NCBI RefSeq assembly: GCF_004102945.1
Contig: NZ_CP019384.1
Location: 390,001 to 422,000, forward strand
Reading direction: 5' to 3'
DNA: 32,000 nt
Origin: Candidatus Velamenicoccus archaeovorus
Lineage (GTDB): Bacteria > Omnitrophota > Gorgyraeia > Velamenicoccales > Velamenicoccaceae
Both the position numbers and the translations under genes were made by a program. The notes beneath the pieces were generated by a model, which worked only from the letters and a program-made list of their open reading frames with translations, had not been told where the DNA came from and ran no database searches. Positions 4,927-22,369 of the stretch are shown piece after piece. How positions within the stretch are numbered: position 1 is the first letter of the stretch; every line of letters starts with the position of its first letter.

Positions 4927-5835
4927 ATGAACATAAGTTCATTTGCGAAACACATCTTTAAACCATATCCCTGGGCCCGGGCCAAAAGATCGTTTTTAGC
5001 CATGGGATTATGCATGATTTTGAGCGCACCCGGCTGGATGGCATTGCGTCAGGCGGATAAAAGCCTTTCTGTGTTGCTGGATAGAGGCAGACAAGAGGAG
5101 GAGGCTGTTGTTTTGTTTTTGAATGTTTTGAACGAAGACAAGGGGTTAAAAGAGACATATGGCCGAAGAAAAATGGGCGAGATCTCTCTGGATGAGTCTT
5201 TAAAAGAACTGCATATGTTGGCAAAAAGAGAGAGGATTTTTTTGGGTTCTATGAAGCCGGCGCAGGCAGACGAAAAAAATGACCGGCAGGGTCTGCGGCG
5301 CAGGAAGATCGAAATGACTTTTCAGGCGCCGGAAGACGGCGTCTATCGGTTTTTGGACGGGTTTTCGGAACTCACATTTTTTTCTTCGCCTGAGTCGATG
5401 GCGATTTCTGCGTCTCCAGAAGGTGCGTCTCTCGTCGGTGTCCGCATGGCGCTTGAGGTATTCGACGATCTGCGAATACCCAAAAAGAAAGCCCGGGATT
5501 ATCTGAAAAAAGCGATTGGTTCGGGTAGGGCCTTTGCGGAACCTCAGGTCTATGTGACGGCCGCAGGCAGAAAGATATTCGGGTCGGCCAAGACCAAGCC
5601 GAAGCGGGCGATCCTGACGCAGGAAAAGAAAGAGGACATCCTGGCGCAGTTGGTGCTTGTCGGTATCGTAGAAGACGTGGGACAAGGCAGGCGTGCCGCC
5701 GTCGAAGACAAGAGATCAGCCAGGACGTCCTATCTTTGTGTCAATGATGCTGTCGGAGATCTCGTGGTTTCCGAGATCGGCGATCACCAGGTGGTTTTTT
5801 CAGGAGGCGGGCAATGCTATGCCCTCGAGCTGTGA
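4927..5835 (+). CDS. PilO-like / PilP-like pilus assembly protein (membrane-anchored)
   Basis: The TM segment is SFLAMGLCMILSAPGWMAL, followed by a charged coiled region. The C-terminal beta-domain VLVGIVEDVGQGRRAAVEDKRSARTSYLCVNDAVGDLVVSEIGDHQVVF resembles PilP/GspC HR-type domains. The gene lies between pilMN-like and the secretin. The ATG 4927 start is preferred because the upstream TTG extension overlaps the inverted-repeat arm. Confidence 0.45.
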   Translation: MNISSFAKHIFKPYPWARAKRSFLAMGLCMILSAPGWMALRQADKSLSVLLDRGRQEEEAVVLFLNVLNEDKGLKETYGRRKMGEISLDESLKELHMLAKRERIFLGSMKPAQADEKNDRQGLRRRKIEMTFQAPEDGVYRFLDGFSELTFFSSPESMAISASPEGASLVGVRMALEVFDDLRIPKKKARDYLKKAIGSGRAFAEPQVYVTAAGRKIFGSAKTKPKRAILTQEKKEDILAQLVLVGIVEDVGQGRRAAVEDKRSARTSYLCVNDAVGDLVVSEIGDHQVVFSGGGQCYALEL

Positions 5836-7424
5836 ATCCCGTTAGAGAAATTTGTTCTCGAAATGTTTACTCTGGTGGCGGTCTAAAGTCACCGTCAGTT
5901 TCCATCGGAGACGACCATCGCTTTCAGGCAGCGGCTTTTTCTAACGTGACGAGTATTTTTTTATTTGCATATCTTGTATTTTTCGCCGGCGTCGTCTCGG
6001 CCCAGGACCTGAACCCGCCTGCCGCGGCAACGGCCGCTGACAAGGTGTCGCTCGATATCAAGGGCATGGATGTCGTGGAGGTCTTGAAGATGCTGGCATC
6101 CAAGGTGCGCATCAACGTGGTCGTTGACAAGAACGTCAGCGGCCGCGTGACCGTCTTTGTGAAGGATGTCTCACCCTCTGACGCGATGAGGACGATCCTT
6201 GCTTCCAACAACCTGGTCCTGCACCAGGAGGGGGAGGTGGCGAGGATCATGACGGCCCAGGATTACGAACAGGCCTACGGCCAGAAATACGCCGATCCCC
6301 GCCGGATGCTGCGCTTGCCTTTGCGTTATTTGGCCGTCCAGCAGGCGGCCGGCCTTCTGACGCAGGTGAAGTCGGGTGTCGGGCAGATCGTCGTCGATGA
6401 GGCCTCAGGCACCCTCATCATTTTGGAGACGCCCCAAAAATTGCATGAGATGGAGATCCTGGTTCGGCAGATGGACCGTCCGATGGAAACGCGCATCTTT
6501 GACCTGAATTACGCCAAGTGCGAGAAAGCGGCGGAGTCCGTGCGGGAAGTCCTTTCCGCGAACACCGGCCGTTTGGTCGTCGACACCCGGGCCAACCGCC
6601 TGATCGTGACGGATTATCCCGAACGTCTCAACCGGGCCGAGGCCGTGATTGCGGGTCTGGATCAGAGGACGCGGGAAGTGCTGATCGATGCCAAGATCGT
6701 TCAGGTCAACTTGACCGATAAGACCTCGCTGGGCATCGATTGGGAATACGTCCTGAATAAAAAATTCTCCGTCCAGGGAATGTTCGGCAACGTAATCACC
6801 ACGACCGGCAACAAATGGACGATTGGCAGTTTGAACCCCAGCGGGCGCAATGATTACAGCGCCGTCATCGAAGCGCTGCGGACGCAGGGGGATACAAAGA
6901 TCCTTTCGGCGCCAAGGCTGGCCGTTGTCAACAACGAATCCGCCAGGATCCTTGTCGGCTCCAAGCAGGTTTACGTGACGACGACGGCGGTCCAGGGTCA
7001 ATCGACGACCGAGACGGCCGAGGCGGTCAATTTCGTGGATGTCGGCGTGAAATTGTATGTGACGCCGACCATCGGGGCGGACGATTTCATTTCCATCAAG
7101 GTCAGGCCGGAGGTCAGCGCCGTGACGGAGAATTACACGACATCGACCGGAAATAAGATCCCTATTGTCGAGACCTCGGAGACGGAAACGACGGTTCTCC
7201 TGAAGGACGGCGCGACGCTGGTTATCGGCGGCCTGATGAAAGACGAAACGGTCAAAACGGCCAACAAGATCCCCTGGGTCGGCAACGTCCCTATCCTTGG
7301 TTTTTTCTTCCGTAACACGGTCTCGGAGACGCGCAAGACGGAGCTGGTGATTTTTCTGACCTGCCGGATCATGGATTTTGCCGCTGTGCCTCCCCAGGAA
7401 AACTTAAAGTTGCAAAAAAGTTAG
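5814..7424 (+). CDS. pilQ: Secretin (PilQ / type II-III secretion system family)
   Basis: A signal-like FLFAYLVFFAGVVSAQD is followed by the N-terminal domain LDIKGMDVVEVLKMLASKVRINVVVD. The secretin core is GDTKILSAPRLAVVNNESARILVGS and the C-terminus is IPWVGNVPILGFFFRN...ELVIFLT. The start is uncertain: ATG 5814 overlaps the upstream gene, and GTG 5946 is an alternative. Confidence 0.85.
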   Translation: MLCPRAVNPVREICSRNVYSGGGLKSPSVSIGDDHRFQAAAFSNVTSIFLFAYLVFFAGVVSAQDLNPPAAATAADKVSLDIKGMDVVEVLKMLASKVRINVVVDKNVSGRVTVFVKDVSPSDAMRTILASNNLVLHQEGEVARIMTAQDYEQAYGQKYADPRRMLRLPLRYLAVQQAAGLLTQVKSGVGQIVVDEASGTLIILETPQKLHEMEILVRQMDRPMETRIFDLNYAKCEKAAESVREVLSANTGRLVVDTRANRLIVTDYPERLNRAEAVIAGLDQRTREVLIDAKIVQVNLTDKTSLGIDWEYVLNKKFSVQGMFGNVITTTGNKWTIGSLNPSGRNDYSAVIEALRTQGDTKILSAPRLAVVNNESARILVGSKQVYVTTTAVQGQSTTETAEAVNFVDVGVKLYVTPTIGADDFISIKVRPEVSAVTENYTTSTGNKIPIVETSETETTVLLKDGATLVIGGLMKDETVKTANKIPWVGNVPILGFFFRNTVSETRKTELVIFLTCRIMDFAAVPPQENLKLQKS

Positions 7425-7449
7425 GCCGTGGCTATAATGAAAATCGATC

Positions 7450-9015
7450 ATGAGACGACTCAAGCCAAAGCGCGAATCGTGGGGATCCCGTCTCGGGATC
7501 ATTATGGCTGTGGCCGGTTCTGCCGTCGGGCTTGGGAATTTTTTGAGGTTCCCGGTTCAGGCCGCAGGCAACGGCGGAGGCGCTTTTATGATCCCGTATT
7601 TCGTGGCGCTTCTCGTTCTTGGGATCCCTCTGGTCTGGATCGAATGGGCGCTGGGCCGTTATGGCGGAGGTTTTGAACACGGGACGGCCCCGGGTATCTT
7701 CCACAGCCTCCTTCAGAAGAACCGGTTCGTCAAATATTTCGGCGTGATCGGTATCTTCGGGCCGTTTGTCATTTTTATCTATTACACATTCATCGAATCC
7801 TGGACCTTGGGGTATAGTTTTTACAGCCTCAAAGGCGTCCTGGCCCAGCTCCATGACCAGTCATCGATCCAGGCCTTCCTGAAGGGGTACCAGGGGCTGG
7901 AGCAGAATTCTTTCTTTTCCAATATCGGCCCGGCGTATCTTTTTTTCATCGCGACGTTCTTTTTAAATATTTTTGTGATTTATTACGGCATACGCGGCGG
8001 CATTGAAGTCTTGTGCAAGATCGCGCTGCCTGTTTTGTTCCTTTTCGGGATCATCCTGGCTGTCCGGGTCCTGACGCTGGGCGCACCTGATCCGGCAAGG
8101 CCGGACTGGAATCTGGTCAACGGTCTTGGGTTTTTATGGAATCCGGACTTCAGCGCACTCAAGTCGGCCAAGGTCTGGCTGGCGGCGGCAGGCCAGATCT
8201 TTTTTACGCTCAGCGTCGGTATCGGCGTGATCCTGACGTATGCCAGCTACCTGTCGCGTGGAGACGACGTCGCGCTTTCCGGCTTGACCGCCGTTAGCAT
8301 GAATGAGTTCGCAGAGGTCATCCTGGGCGGATGCATCATCATCCCGGCCGCTTTCGTCTTTTTCGGGCCCGTGGATGTCCAGGCGATCGCCAAGCAGGGG
8401 GCATTCGATTTGGGGTTTGTGACCATGCCGTTGATCCTGGGTAAGATCCCCTTGGCCGCGGTTTTAAGTTTTTTATGGTTTGCGCTCCTTTTTATGGCCG
8501 GGGTGACGTCGAGCGTTTCTCTGGCGCAGCCAGCGGTCGCTTTTCTGGAAGATGAATTCGACATCTCCCGTAAAAAAGCTGTCGGGATTTTTGCGGTCGT
8601 CAGCTTTGTCCTTTGTCAGCCGGCGATCTTTTTTTTGAGCCGCGGCGTCGTCAACGAGCTGGATTTCTGGGGTGGCACATTCTGTCTCGTCCTTTTTGGA
8701 ACGGTCGAGACCATTCTTTTCGCCTGGGTCTTCGGTATGGACAGGGCGTGGGAAGAGATCCATCACGGCGCGGACATTGCCGTGCCCCGTGTCTATAAGT
8801 TCATCATCAGATACGTGACGCCTGTTTTTCTTCTGGTTATCCTGGGTTTCTGGTTTTACCAGGAGGGTTTGCCGACGATCTTGCTCAGGGGCGTGGCGGA
8901 AGCAGACAAGCCTTTTATCTTTTGGACACGCCTGGGTTTGGTGGGGTTTTTTGTGATTTTGTCCATCCTGGTCAAGCTTGCCTGGCGCCGCCGGCAGAAT
9001 AACTTGGAGGTTTAA
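7450..9015 (+). CDS. Sodium-dependent transporter, neurotransmitter:sodium symporter (NSS/SNF) family
   Basis: The N-terminal RESWGSRLGIIMAVAGSAVGLGNFLRFP signature and the multi-TM profile are diagnostic of NSS transporters. Confidence 0.9.
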   Translation: MRRLKPKRESWGSRLGIIMAVAGSAVGLGNFLRFPVQAAGNGGGAFMIPYFVALLVLGIPLVWIEWALGRYGGGFEHGTAPGIFHSLLQKNRFVKYFGVIGIFGPFVIFIYYTFIESWTLGYSFYSLKGVLAQLHDQSSIQAFLKGYQGLEQNSFFSNIGPAYLFFIATFFLNIFVIYYGIRGGIEVLCKIALPVLFLFGIILAVRVLTLGAPDPARPDWNLVNGLGFLWNPDFSALKSAKVWLAAAGQIFFTLSVGIGVILTYASYLSRGDDVALSGLTAVSMNEFAEVILGGCIIIPAAFVFFGPVDVQAIAKQGAFDLGFVTMPLILGKIPLAAVLSFLWFALLFMAGVTSSVSLAQPAVAFLEDEFDISRKKAVGIFAVVSFVLCQPAIFFLSRGVVNELDFWGGTFCLVLFGTVETILFAWVFGMDRAWEEIHHGADIAVPRVYKFIIRYVTPVFLLVILGFWFYQEGLPTILLRGVAEADKPFIFWTRLGLVGFFVILSILVKLAWRRRQNNLEV

Positions 9016-12696: not shown

Positions 12697-13133
12697 GGGG
12701 CTGATTGGGCTCGATTCAGGTATGTCGGGTGATGAGCAGCATGCAGAGGTTGTAAGGAGGCCTCTTTAAACACCTTACACAATACAAACGCTGAAACTGA
12801 TCCAACAGTGCTAGCAGCGCTTAATATCGTTAACCCGATATTCAATGCGCCGTTAGTAGGCGTAAGATAAGCCTTAGTCCACTCGCTGGACTAAGCCATG
12901 ACCGGGGCAATTCTGCGTGTTTCGGTGATGACGGGCTTTAGGGCCGCAAGGCCTTAAAGCAGGCAGAATAGTCCTTACCCTGCCGGCGGGATAAGGGCGA
13001 AATTTAAGCCGGCTGGTCCTGTGAGATCCTGTCTGCCGGAGACCGCAGGGCGAGAATAAATGGCAGGCTAAGCATGTAGCGGCTTTCGCTTCTCTATCTG
13101 AGGACCCGGGTTCGATTCCCGGCAGCTCCACCA
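12697..13133 (+). ncRNA. ssrA: Transfer-messenger RNA (tmRNA)
   Basis: The 5' GGGGCTGATTGGGCTCGA pairs with the 3' CAGCTCCACCA, giving an acceptor stem with a G:U at position 3. The T-arm is GGGTTCGATTCCC. The GGCTAAGCATGTAG block and a PK1-like GAGGTTGTAAGGAGGCCTC...CCTTACA precede a GCT resume codon at 12790. The gene is adjacent to smpB. Confidence 0.9.
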
Positions 13134-13235
13134 ATTTTTTCCTTAACGGAAAAAATTGGTGGCGCAGAAACAGGCGTTGCGAAGCGATAAGCGGAGCAGC
13201 CTGTTTCTGCCTCCACCACCTCGATGTATTTTCTG

Positions 13236-13267
13236 AAACCAAAGCTTTTAACGCTTTGGTTTTTTTA
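13236..13267 (+). terminator. Rho-independent terminator
   Basis: AAACCAAAGC-TTTTAAC-GCTTTGGTTT is followed by a T-run. It lies about 100 nt after the mature tmRNA 3' end. Confidence 0.6.
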
Positions 13268-19158: not shown

Positions 19159-19186
19159 TAGGGGGGTCACCCTGTTAGAGATATGT

Positions 19187-19213
19187 CCCGTTAGAAATGA
19201 GGTTTCTAACGGG
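19187..19213 (+). terminator. Perfect 11-bp stem-loop after the beta-CASP gene (terminator-like, member of the CCCGTTAGA hairpin family)
   Basis: CCCGTTAGAAA-TGAGG-TTTCTAACGGG is followed by ACTTTATAT. Confidence 0.45.
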
Positions 19214-19312
19214 ACTTTATATGTGGGTTCACAGAGAAAAGTTCTGTTTTTTTAACAGATTAACAGATTGGATTTCCCAGTTGATGGATGGGGTCCTGTC
19301 ATCTCTAACGGC

Positions 19313-19341
19313 GTAAACCTTTTGTTTCGTTGTTCGTCTAA
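19313..19341 (+). promoter_or_regulatory. ECF-type promoter candidate for the repeat-protein / sigma / anti-sigma operon
   Basis: GTAAAC (19313-19318), a 16-nt spacer, then CGTCTAA (19335-19341). This matches the general ECF pattern (G/T)nAAC-N16-17-CGTC. It is embedded in a 12-bp perfect inverted repeat, CCTTTTGTTTCG (19318-19329) / CGAAACAAAAGG (19353-19364). Confidence 0.4.
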
Positions 19342-20594: not shown

Positions 20595-21113
20595 ATGGGT
20601 ATGTGTTTTTTTGTGAAACGAAAACTGCTTGATTTTGCCGAAGGGGATATTCCGGAGTGCCAGGCCGTGCAGGTGCGCGCGCATCTGGAAAGCTGTCCGG
20701 CCTGCCGCGGCCGTTTGGCGGAGATCCGCCGGGGCCTCCAGGCTGCCGGCTTGCATCGAGAAACGCAGATGTCCGAAGATTTCTGGAAGAAGTTCGATGT
20801 CGAGCTGCAGAAGAAGATCTTCGAGCGTGAATGTGAACGCTTCCCCCGCACCGGCCGGCGGTTCGTTTGGGTTGCGTCCGTATGGCGCCCGGCACTCATC
20901 GCGCTTCCCGTCCTGGTCATTATGTTCGCCGTGGCCACGCATCTGAGGGTGTTTTCTCCGGCGGCACGGGAAGAGGCGCTGGTTCGCGATGCGGCTTGGC
21001 TGATGGACGAAGCTTCGGACGAACAAGGCACGCTGTCTTCAGATGACGACATTACGGCCGATATCGAAATCCTTTATCTTGCAGATCCTTCTGCATTCCG
21101 GGAAAATGGATAA
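20595..21113 (+). CDS. Anti-sigma factor (zf-HC2 type) with a single TM helix
   Basis: HLESCPACRGRL carries the Hx3Cx2C motif near the N-terminus, with a TM helix ALIALPVLVIMFAVATHL. The gene is immediately downstream of the ECF sigma. The ATG 20595 start has a GAGAGG SD. Confidence 0.75.
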   Translation: MGMCFFVKRKLLDFAEGDIPECQAVQVRAHLESCPACRGRLAEIRRGLQAAGLHRETQMSEDFWKKFDVELQKKIFERECERFPRTGRRFVWVASVWRPALIALPVLVIMFAVATHLRVFSPAAREEALVRDAAWLMDEASDEQGTLSSDDDITADIEILYLADPSAFRENG

Positions 21114-21187
21114 GCGGTCGTCTCTTTTCGAGTGAGAGGATTTCTTTTCTCGGTTGTGTTGTTTTTCCTTCCCTTGCCTTCCTTGCG

Positions 21188-21379
21188 TTGTTATCCTTGA
21201 AGATTGCACGTGTTCTTTTTTTTCGCATGCACCGGCTCATTCTTGAGGCGAGCCAAGCCATTGCTGTGACAGAAAGGTGGATTGCGGATGTTTGGCGCAA
21301 GCCTCATCCGGCCGCCGTGGCGCTTGACCCAGCCGTTTTGGACCAAGATTCGGAGCCGAAGAAAGTCAAAATATTGTGA
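21188..21379 (+). CDS. Hypothetical small ORF (doubtful)
   Basis: This is an ORF-track entry with a TTG start and an internal ATG giving about 50 aa. No recognisable motif and no clear SD were found. Confidence 0.15.
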   Translation: MLSLKIARVLFFRMHRLILEASQAIAVTERWIADVWRKPHPAAVALDPAVLDQDSEPKKVKIL

Positions 21380-21408
21380 TTGAAAATTTAAAAAATTACT
21401 ATTATGAT
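21380..21408 (+). promoter_or_regulatory. Strong sigma70-like promoter candidate
   Basis: TTGAAA (21380-21385), a 17-nt AT-rich spacer, then TATGAT (21403-21408). An overlapping alternative is TTGTGA (21375-21380) -N17- TACTAT. Confidence 0.5.
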
Positions 21409-21414
21409 ATTAAG

Positions 21415-21787
21415 GAAGATTTAATCCTAAGTAGAAATCCCCAGGCCTTTTGCGATGCGGCCTGGCTGATGGTCAGGGCGGAAGCCCGTGGAATGAATGC
21501 AGTTGTGAAGTTCTTCTGCACCCCGCGCTTATCGGTACCTGGCGCTTTATAGGAATTGCGCCAGTGTTCCCTTGTGGGAAAATGGCGCAGGTGTTTCGCC
21601 TTCTGCGACACCCTGCGCTTATCGGAATGGCGCAGGTGTTTCGCTTTCTGCGAAAGGAGCAAGCCCTGGTCTTTAGGCGAGGGAGGTTTCGCTGACGCAA
21701 CTCGGGTTAGGACATAAGGATGGATACGGTTCTGCAGGAGAAGCAGGCCGTCATTCCAGTAGATTATTCTGGCGCAGGGAGGACACG
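21415..21787 (+). ncRNA. Candidate structured RNA or long 5' leader of unknown class, with internal direct repeats
   Basis: About 370 nt lie between the promoter and the well-supported ATG 21788 (GGGAGG SD). No credible ORF is present. There are several 7-10 bp hairpins, for example CCAGGCC/GGCCTGG, CTGGCGC/GCGCCAG and GCGCAGGTGT/ACACC(C)TGCGC. A 28-nt direct repeat occurs at 21581-21608 and 21626-21653 (27 of 28 identical). GCGCTTATCGG occurs at 21525 and 21615. Confidence 0.3.
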
Positions 21788-22369
21788 ATGCCAATTTCCC
21801 AGAGAAGGGTGTTCCAAAGCGGCTTAATTTTATTCATTTTGTTTGGTTTCGCGCACATGGGCGTTGGCGCAAAACAGTCTATCCGGCTTGGAGATGCGGT
21901 TTCTTCGGAACCTCGGTCAGGAGGGGCGGTCTGTCTTGGTTTTTTCTCGGGTGTCAGAGAGGCTTGGGCTGAGGGAGAAGACGCCAAAGAGACAGAAGTG
22001 AAAAATCAAGAAGCAGAAGCAAAAGATGCAAAAGGCGAGAGCGGGGATTATCCCGAAGAGGTCCGTGATGCGATTGAACGCCGCAGTGCCCGCCGCAATG
22101 AACTCCTGTCCTGGGAAAAGAAGGGCGTGATCGGCGAAAACATGCATGGGCATGTTGAGATCGTCAAGCGGGGGGCTTCCAAAAAAAATAATCTGGTCGC
22201 CTTGGTGGAGCAGGAAAACAGGGACCGTTCTGCGATCTATGCGTATGTCGCAAAAAAGGACAAGGTTTCCGTGAATGAAACGGTTAGGTTTTTCACCCGG
22301 AAGATCCAGACAGAAGCCCCGGCAAAGACACCGATCCAGTGTTTTAACGGAGAGTGGACAGTCAAGTAG
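21788..22369 (+). CDS. DUF1318 (YdbL-like) periplasmic protein
   Basis: A signal peptide and an acidic linker are followed by KKGVIGENMHGHVEIV...LVEQENRDRSAIYAYVAKKDKVSVNETV...GEWTVK, which matches the YdbL family pattern. Confidence 0.75.
   Translation: MPISQRRVFQSGLILFILFGFAHMGVGAKQSIRLGDAVSSEPRSGGAVCLGFFSGVREAWAEGEDAKETEVKNQEAEAKDAKGESGDYPEEVRDAIERRSARRNELLSWEKKGVIGENMHGHVEIVKRGASKKNNLVALVEQENRDRSAIYAYVAKKDKVSVNETVRFFTRKIQTEAPAKTPIQCFNGEWTVK

Follow-up and report, generated by a model that had tools for sequence, protein, structure and literature searches.

The 674-nt gap at 21114-21787 between the anti-sigma gene (5') and the DUF1318/ydbL-like gene (3') of Candidatus Velamenicoccus archaeovorus very likely holds the wreck of a short ydbH-like gene, a neutrally evolving insertion, and a conserved nucleotide element that is probably an internal promoter. 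The locus was analyzed in a 32,000-nt stretch of the genome (contig NZ_CP019384.1, positions 390,001 to 422,000), called the window, and coordinates are those of the window. The original prediction, made from the letters of the sequence, had described a strong promoter driving about 370 nt of structured, repeat-containing noncoding sequence that was proposed to be a novel regulatory leader or an independent small RNA (sRNA).

Syntenic contigs, numbered as L loci, were collected via homologues of the DUF1318 protein. The window contains a conserved gene string that encodes a 208-aa protein, an extracytoplasmic function (ECF) sigma factor, and an anti-sigma factor, followed by the gap and by genes for DUF1318, PC4-like, PP-loop ATPase, and PAS-GGDEF-HD proteins. 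The order in relatives is ECF sigma, anti-sigma, a ydbH-like gene (~328 aa), a ynbE/ydbL-like fusion containing DUF1318, and PC4. An intact gene of 327-330 aa occupies exactly the same slot in L008-L011, L013, L016, L017, L019/L022, L020, L023, and L024, and the intact gene is immediately 5' of DUF1318 in all of these lineages, which number at least 10. L008-L011 form the next lineage out, with neighboring genes that are 75-91% identical in DNA, and their 329-aa gene fills the slot exactly with start and stop codons that abut or overlap the neighbors. L001 and L005 are close relatives (DUF1318 protein 90-91% identical) whose gap is similar to that of the window. L025 is a metagenome-assembled genome of Ca. 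Velamenicoccus archaeovorus with a near-identical locus (synonymous divergence, pS, 0.026).

A nucleotide profile built from eight intact ydbH-like genes was compared to the window using nhmmer. There were three matches that are collinear and on one strand (21151-21253, 21326-21423, and 21695-21781). The first match, the 5' remnant, also aligned to L008 1562-1696 by blastn (64% identity, E 1.7e-7), and its breaks are visible by three-frame translation. A tblastn search of the whole window with the intact protein recovered QNIVIENLKNYYYDI at 21340-21417 (18 of 26 identities, E 2e-6) as well as fainter matches, also collinear, in two frames of 21699-21781, but no match to ydbH-like residues ~57-260. 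The first part of the 3' remnant is 93% identical in DNA to L008 2357-2414, and the second part contains an in-frame stop and a frameshift. Overall identity to L008 is 64% for the 5' remnant and 71% for the 3' part. In the window, L001, and L005 alike, translation of the slot is interrupted by stops and frameshifts. The three collinear profile matches together with the stops and frameshifts identify the gap, as judged by sequence comparison, as a pseudogene of the short ydbH-like gene that is no longer a functional member of the family; the stops, the frameshifts, a ~630-nt deletion, and a 269-nt insertion leave no intact YdbH-like open reading frame (ORF). The earlier description of a region with no credible ORF was correct, as was the report of an antisense ORF (21402-21794, 130 aa) carrying SQKAKHLRH twice. 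The idea of a dedicated noncoding locus was not, because the region is the remnant of a coding gene. The coordinates of all features are compiled in Table 1.

Table 1. Features of the decayed ydbH-like locus and its borders.
Feature	Position	Strand	Evidence and remarks
Anti-sigma (zf-HC2) gene	20595..21113	+	Pfam PF13490; upstream border of gap; synteny kept
5' remnant (~codons 13-50, N-terminal transmembrane region; frameshifts and stop)	21151..21253	+	nhmmer model 38-149, E 2.5e-4
Deletion scar, 72 nt replacing ~630 nt of gene interior	21254..21325	+	Model positions 150-782 missing (nhmmer)
3' remnant part 1 (~codons 261-295: ...DPxxL..QNIVIENLKNYYYDI..)	21326..21425	+	nhmmer model 783-880, E 1.6e-19
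Island left half with promoter-like site	21362..21408	+	-35 TTGAAA 21380-21385, 17-nt spacer, -10 TATGAT 21403-21408
Clade-specific 269-nt insertion splitting the island	21426..21694	+	Junctions compared with intact genes; holds every repeat and hairpin of the original prediction
24-nt patch copied from anti-sigma gene (20983-21006)	21449..21472	+	Local alignment, 22/24 identical
Tandem duplication (28-nt repeat at 21581-21608 and 21626-21653)	21581..21653	+	45-nt period, 27/28 identical
3' remnant part 2 (~codons 295-324: RN.GQDIRMD..LQ.. then ..GR..L.LFW.)	21695..21781	+	nhmmer model 884-971, E 6.6e-14
Island right half	21695-21724	+	0-2/30 differences from intact consensus in the window's clade
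DUF1318 (ydbL-like) gene	21788..22369	+	Pfam PF07027, E 4.6e-14; intact

The family assignment comes from the intact homologues. Four of nine ydbH-like homologues match PF11739 (YdbH-like) in Pfam with a best E value of 5.2e-10, one matches AsmA, and the NCBI name of one homologue is 'YdbH domain-containing protein [Candidatus Omnitrophota bacterium]'. The protein alignment shows a hydrophobic stretch at the N-terminal end. With hhalign, the family gave a weak alignment (E 0.012, probability 3.5%) to Escherichia coli YdbH. YdbH is an AsmA-like intermembrane lipid-transport protein, and ydbH-ynbE-ydbL is an operon in E. coli (PMC11126948; Kumar, Davis & Ruiz 2024). The outer-membrane lipoprotein YnbE binds the YdbH C terminus to form an intermembrane lipid bridge, and the periplasmic DUF1318 protein YdbL restrains YnbE multimerization (PMC11126948). 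The Omnitrophota loci resemble this operon in three respects: the ydbH-like gene is directly 5' of a DUF1318/ydbL-like gene and its homologues match the Pfam YdbH-like family, the downstream protein of the relatives opens with a YnbE-like lipoprotein module, and the best-conserved protein block is the YdbH-like C terminus, the part that contacts YnbE in E. coli. They differ in that the E. coli gene encodes 879 aa and the gene here ~328 aa, the relatives appear to carry YnbE and YdbL as one fused protein, and the string stands behind an ECF sigma/anti-sigma pair. The window differs further in having a dead ydbH-like gene and no YnbE-like module, with only the YdbL-like domain surviving.

The loss of the YnbE-like module is evident in the DUF1318 proteins. 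In the intact-ydbH lineages, the protein starts with a lipobox (LLGC) followed by the module IDTKKPIQVDVKMRVD, and this N-terminal module aligns to E. coli YnbE at the lipidated cysteine (E 5e-4 in a single comparison). An alignment that includes L008 2515-3102 shows that the lipobox Cys is replaced by Phe (LFGFAH) and that 19 module residues are deleted in the window, L001, L005, and L007. The intact-lineage protein looks like a YnbE-YdbL fusion lipoprotein, and the window's protein looks like a secreted YdbL-only protein. DUF1318 is under purifying selection in the window's clade (dN/dS, the ratio of nonsynonymous to synonymous substitution rates, 0.15-0.24); therefore, the gene still needs to be expressed. 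By these alignments, the lipid-bridge protein and its YnbE-like partner module are lost together, and the YdbL-like domain is kept.

The limits of the insertion were set by its junctions. The window reads ...GGAAGATTTAAT, then 269 nt, then ACGCAACTCGGG..., and the intact genes read ...GGGAAGATTGAATTACGCAACTTGGG..., placing the insertion between profile positions 880 and 884. It is absent from L007 (DUF1318 71% identical) and from the intact-gene lineages L008, L013, L016-L020, and L023/L024. The insertion is 269 nt in the window, 268 nt in L025, 316 nt in L001, and 200 nt in L005. L001 has one extra 90-nt tandem unit, and L005 is missing the array and has a divergent stretch instead (a ~115-nt loss or replacement). 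Insertion divergence from L025 is 0.026, the same as the pS of 0.026. Divergence from L001 and L005 is 0.10-0.27 plus 47-126 gap columns, and the corresponding pS is 0.13-0.25.

Two internal features bear on the origin of the insertion. The local alignment of the 24-nt patch to the anti-sigma gene scored 38 compared to a shuffle mean of 17.3 (standard deviation 2.2, ~9 standard deviations), and none of 500 shuffles reached 38. The patch therefore suggests templated filler DNA. A search for wider homology between the insertion and the anti-sigma gene found that only a 24-33-nt patch is significant. The 28-nt direct repeat had been correctly placed at 21581 and 21626. It belongs to a unit with a 90-nt period that also takes in 21511-21535 and 21601-21625, and the second repeat of the original prediction (GCGCTTATCGG at 21525 and 21615, spaced by 90 nt) was confirmed within this 25-nt repeat. 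The ydbH-like nhmmer profile has no match inside the insertion on either strand, and derivation from the deleted part of ydbH was rejected. The ORFs of the insertion were rejected as coding: their stop positions differ among the relatives, and they have no Pfam matches.

The RNA features that had been proposed for the region map to the insertion. The predicted hairpins are present with stems of 5-10 bp. The three TTTCGC segments (21594, 21639, and 21687) and the single GCGAAA also exist, with GCGAAA located at 21650-21655, 2 nt from the 21652-21657 reported earlier. The competition among helices does not hold up because two of the TTTCGC copies exist only through the duplicated 28-mer. An Rfam scan of the whole window at the gathering threshold and of the region at E<=10 returned only noise in the region (CRISPR-DR57, E 9; DLEU2_5, E 9.2); the one genuine match was the tmRNA gene at 12697-13133. 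There is no terminator-like site on the + strand between 20800 and 22600 and no element that would sequester the ribosome-binding site. The tests for a riboswitch or attenuator failed: there is no Rfam family, no conservation with covariation, and no expression platform. Folding energies on the + strand compared to shuffled sequences gave z = -1.6 for a 386-nt stretch and -2.3 to -2.5 for the insertion, and z = -4.2 on the - strand. This pattern fits DNA-level palindromes better than a selected RNA. Two other candidates were tried. A CRISPR-like (clustered regularly interspaced short palindromic repeats) mini-array was rejected: the spacers are only 17 nt, and the true period is 90 nt, a tandem duplication. 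A CsrB/RsmZ-like sponge was also rejected: 13 GGA in 373 nt (0.035/nt) is 1.5-fold above the 0.0225/nt of the window and not significant. The insertion is best described as neutrally evolving filler, and not as a riboswitch, attenuator, or sRNA.

Two further observations concern the region around the insertion. The divergence between the window and L025 is mosaic, with 0 differences in 21114-21425 (312 nt) and 16 in 21426-21787 (362 nt), which suggests a recombination boundary near the insertion. Nonsynonymous divergence (pN) of DUF1318 from L025 is also elevated (0.033 compared to 0.010 overall). Contigs of L007, L013, L018, and L020 end, and those of L002, L003, L004, and L006 start, within ~140 nt of the island described below or inside the tandem repeat. 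The L002 and L003 metagenome contigs start exactly inside the repeat. The invariant island probably tangles the assembly graph.

The conserved element was defined in a codon alignment of six intact genes with pairwise DNA identities of 53-95%, in which columns with a conserved, degenerate amino acid were compared. Codons are identical in 23 of the 27 such columns within an ~87-nt island (CAAAATATTGTGATTGAAAATTTRAAAAATTACTATTATGATATAGGGAAGATTGAATTACGCAACTTGGGTCAGGACATAAGGATG) compared to 7 of 56 in the rest of the gene (Fisher p = 1.2e-10). More lineages were collected by scanning metagenomes for a back-translated pattern in which synonymous positions were all unconstrained, and all matches used the same codons nonetheless. 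In L023 and L024, which lie at 37-38% protein identity, 74-75 of the 87 nt are conserved; neither hexamer of the promoter-like motif has changed, and the synonymous changes are located in the spacer. The same constraint is seen in the clade with the dead ORF. Across the 47 nt that surround the motif, the window, L001, and L005 vary at just one position, and L025 shows no difference. Divergence of the 5' remnant and the 3' tail among the window, L001, and L005 is 0.13-0.22, and neutral divergence is 0.13-0.25. An overlapping ORF does not explain the frozen synonymous sites because all other frames of the island contain stops. The pattern is that of selection on the island nucleotides themselves, which persists without the protein. 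In most respects the locus behaves like other bacterial pseudogenes: its pieces are collinear with a gene that relatives keep intact, it has stops, frameshifts, and a large deletion in the interior, it diverges at an approximately neutral rate, and the functional partner has been lost with it. It differs in that a ~47-nt piece of the remnant, and probably a second piece of ~30 nt, is still under strong constraint in the window. These constrained pieces point to a noncoding function that outlived the gene.

The promoter-like site at 21380-21408 (+), TTGAAA-N17-TATGAT, matches the sigma-70 consensus at 10 of 12 positions as reported originally. It is the sole exact occurrence in the window, and no shuffled sequence gave one. 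The promoter call has gained comparative support from the frozen synonymous sites and from the left half of the island, which is unchanged in the dead-ORF clade. The motif consists of the codons for IENLKNYYYD, and the intact genes have the same hexamers. The patch is AT-rich, as had been noted, because it codes for IENLKNYYYDI. The hexamers are close to consensus and 17 nt apart, and the gene 3' of them is still required, so a promoter is the most economical reading, and we judge the island to be probably an internal sigma-70-type promoter for the ynbE/ydbL-like gene that is independent of ydbH. Transcription would start near 21415, and the insertion would travel as a passive ~370-nt 5' leader of the DUF1318 mRNA. 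The leader length of the original prediction is therefore right if the promoter fires; its regulatory structure is not supported. An ECF-sigma promoter in the island was rejected because the ECF motif of the operon at 19313-19341 has no counterpart there. Rfam has no match at the island in the intact loci. The covariation term of RNAalifold for a native leader structure was unfavorable (+1.57), and the invariance of the island precludes covariation. A promoter scan at the tmRNA gene, intended to calibrate sigma-70 usage, found none and was uninformative. A public metatranscriptome of a Ca. Velamenicoccus archaeovorus limonene enrichment, which its authors mapped to CP019384, is available (SRR30230645; PMC13153191).

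The predicted promoter resembles known sigma-70 promoters that lie inside the preceding gene of an operon, at its 3' end, in its near-consensus hexamers with 17-nt spacing, in its location ~110-130 nt 5' of the next start codon in the intact lineages, and in the synonymous-site constraint expected for embedded regulatory DNA. It differs in that the conserved block of ~87 nt is longer than a promoter needs, and in that the window carries a 269-nt insertion ~10 nt 3' of the predicted transcript start. Another 10/12 site (TTGCAA-N17-TATAAT) was found at 7410-7438, where it overlaps the last codons of the ORF 5814-7424 directly 5' of the ORF 7450-9015. This site could be a further case of a promoter contained within the 3' end of the preceding gene.

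Several observations weigh against parts of this account. The closest intact homologue (P0007) alone has no Pfam or NCBIfam match. Neutrality of the insertion was judged from four variants only (window, L025, L001, and L005), so weak constraint is possible. One hairpin pairs as TTCCC/GGGAA in the window and as TTCGCC/GGCGAA in L005, a compensatory-looking change, and the hairpins are somewhat more stable than shuffles, above all on the - strand. The apparent templated source accounts for the 24-nt patch only. There are five promoter-like sites matching at least 10 of 12 positions on both strands of the window, and three are deep inside genes; therefore, the hexamers alone are weak evidence. 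The frozen island runs ~47 nt past the -10 hexamer, which is longer than a bare promoter needs, and its right half has only 0-2 differences in 30 nt in the dead-ORF clade compared to an expected divergence of ~30%. Something besides a promoter may be encoded in the island.

The view that the region is a ~370-nt structured cis-regulatory leader, riboswitch- or attenuator-like, or an independent sRNA draws on the promoter-like site with its comparative support, on the several predicted hairpins and the fold of the insertion, and on the hairpin that still pairs after the double change in L005. We consider it very improbable. The structured part is an insertion in a dead gene that is absent from all other lineages, and a lack of conservation in relatives is what the original prediction itself had named as refuting it. 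Among close relatives, the insertion has undergone a 90-nt duplication and a ~115-nt loss or replacement and diverges at or above the synonymous rate. The stems of the other hairpins are broken in L001 or L005, and the Rfam, terminator, ribosome-binding site, and TTTCGC results given above all count against an RNA function. A small mobile or multicopy element that landed in the gene, such as a miniature inverted-repeat transposable element or a cluster of palindromes of the repetitive extragenic palindromic (REP) or bacterial interspersed mosaic element (BIME) type, is also improbable, if less so. A quasi-palindromic arm of ~15 nt (AATGGCGCAGGTGTT) is present in both orientations and recalls REP clusters, both strands of the insertion fold, metagenome contigs break inside it, and its right end weakly resembles the left junction (~9 of 15 positions), which could be what is left of a target duplication. 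Terminal inverted repeats are not clearly present. No second copy was detected in the 32-kb window, in ~100 kb of related loci, in plasmids, or in viral contigs. In 185,579 species-representative genomes (GTDB), an exact 24-mer occurs only by chance in an Acidobacteria contig, and the antisense ORF, used as a proxy query against a 5.8-billion-protein collection, recovered only the orthologous locus. The internal tandem repeat, together with the invariant island that co-occurring strains have in common, accounts for the contig breaks. The likeness to REP/BIME clusters and to quasi-palindrome-driven tandem duplications lies in a GC-rich imperfect palindrome arm that runs both ways and in a tandem copy number that varies between strains. 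The differences from REP/BIME clusters are that no dispersed copies were found in the places searched and that one segment appears to be templated from a neighboring gene.

The island itself is open to two other explanations. It could be another kind of nucleic-acid element, such as an antisense promoter, a structure or a processing site in the mRNA, a site bound by an sRNA or a protein, or an operator recognized by a regulator of the ynbE/ydbL-like gene. We regard this as unlikely, though it has substance: conservation extends ~47 nt beyond the -10 and ~13 nt 5' of the -35, the flanks of the motif could pair in a 7-bp helix (UGUGAUU/AAUUACG), TTGCGT-N16-TATCAT can be read by inspection on the opposite strand of the intact island, and the right half is conserved in the dead-ORF clade even though it is 200-316 nt away from the left half. 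What stays constant is the pair of hexamers, set at the optimal distance of 17 nt; the spacer between them has synonymous changes in L023/L024. The insertion destroys both the candidate helix and the pairing of the antisense -35 and -10, and the left half is still invariant. The absence of an Rfam match at the intact loci and of covariation in an invariant island also weighs against this reading. The second explanation, that the identity of the island reflects recent recombination or gene conversion among co-occurring strains and not selection, is extremely improbable. Four lineages with an identical island do co-occur in metagenome Ga0265297, and the mosaic divergence between the window and L025 suggests recombination in the region. 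The same sharp boundaries are present in every lineage, from several unrelated samples, and the graded divergence of L023/L024 with the hexamers spared is what selection predicts and what conversion tracts would not produce. An internal promoter remains our preferred reading of the island. A broader proposal, which we hold only tentatively and think somewhat doubtful, is that the island, which lies within the final 40 codons of short ydbH-like genes in Omnitrophota, is an undescribed module consisting of a promoter plus a conserved leader or operator, with halves that still work after the gene died and was split.

These comparisons suggest how the locus may have decayed. The gene has been wrecked in three ways, by loss of ~630 nt of its interior, by frameshifts and stops at both ends, and by the 269-nt insertion after codon ~295. 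Loss of the YnbE-like module and the 3' frameshift likely came first, because L007 has both too. The insertion likely came afterward in the window's clade, because the island of L007 is uninterrupted. The L007 contig starts inside the island, so it shows nothing of the interior deletion. The insertion would have arisen by template switching or filler synthesis, partly from the anti-sigma gene, and would then have expanded via the 45/90-nt tandem duplications by slippage at the quasi-palindromic unit.

Other elements were noted elsewhere in the window. An ECF-type promoter-like motif (GTAAACC-N15-CGTCTAA) is located at 19313-19341, just 5' of the 208-aa gene that heads the sigma/anti-sigma string. 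The motif is identical in L001, L005, and L011 despite differing intergenic DNA around it and is probably the promoter through which the ECF sigma factor regulates its own expression. A perfect hairpin (CCCGTTAGAAA...TTTCTAACGGG) followed by a short tandem repeat (TTAACAGA x2.2) lies at 19186-19269, 3' of a beta-CASP/RMMBL gene, and the equivalent position in L001 and L005 has a different sequence with similar architecture. A transfer-messenger RNA (tmRNA) gene at 12697-13133 (Rfam RF00023, 140 bits, E 3.5e-55) is followed by a terminator-like hairpin at 13235-13263. A perfect tandem repeat occupies 1271-1517 (92-nt unit, 2.7 copies, 100% identical); each unit holds the inverted repeats GGCATGACTTAGC...GCTAAGTCATC and GGCGGAT/ATCCGCC, and its sequence is unrelated to the 269-nt insertion.

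The locus belongs to a known kind, a bacterial pseudogene in a recognized operon type (ydbH / ynbE-ydbL) with a putative embedded internal promoter. What is new, modestly, is the ~87-nt frozen-synonymous island in the ydbH-like family and its survival in two pieces after the death of the gene. The analysis strikes one false entry from the candidates for new riboswitches or sRNAs and illustrates a recurring trap, in which a decaying gene mimics a promoter plus structured leader when AT-rich codons resemble promoter hexamers and duplicated quasi-palindromes resemble competing helices. In the ydbH-like family, the frozen-synonymous island marks an embedded regulatory element, and the module proposed above, if true, would let the YnbE/YdbL-like partner be expressed independently of YdbH. 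The joint loss of YdbH and the YnbE-like module in a predatory ultramicrobacterial lineage fits the functional coupling seen in E. coli, and the retained YdbL-like domain raises the question of the role of YdbL alone.

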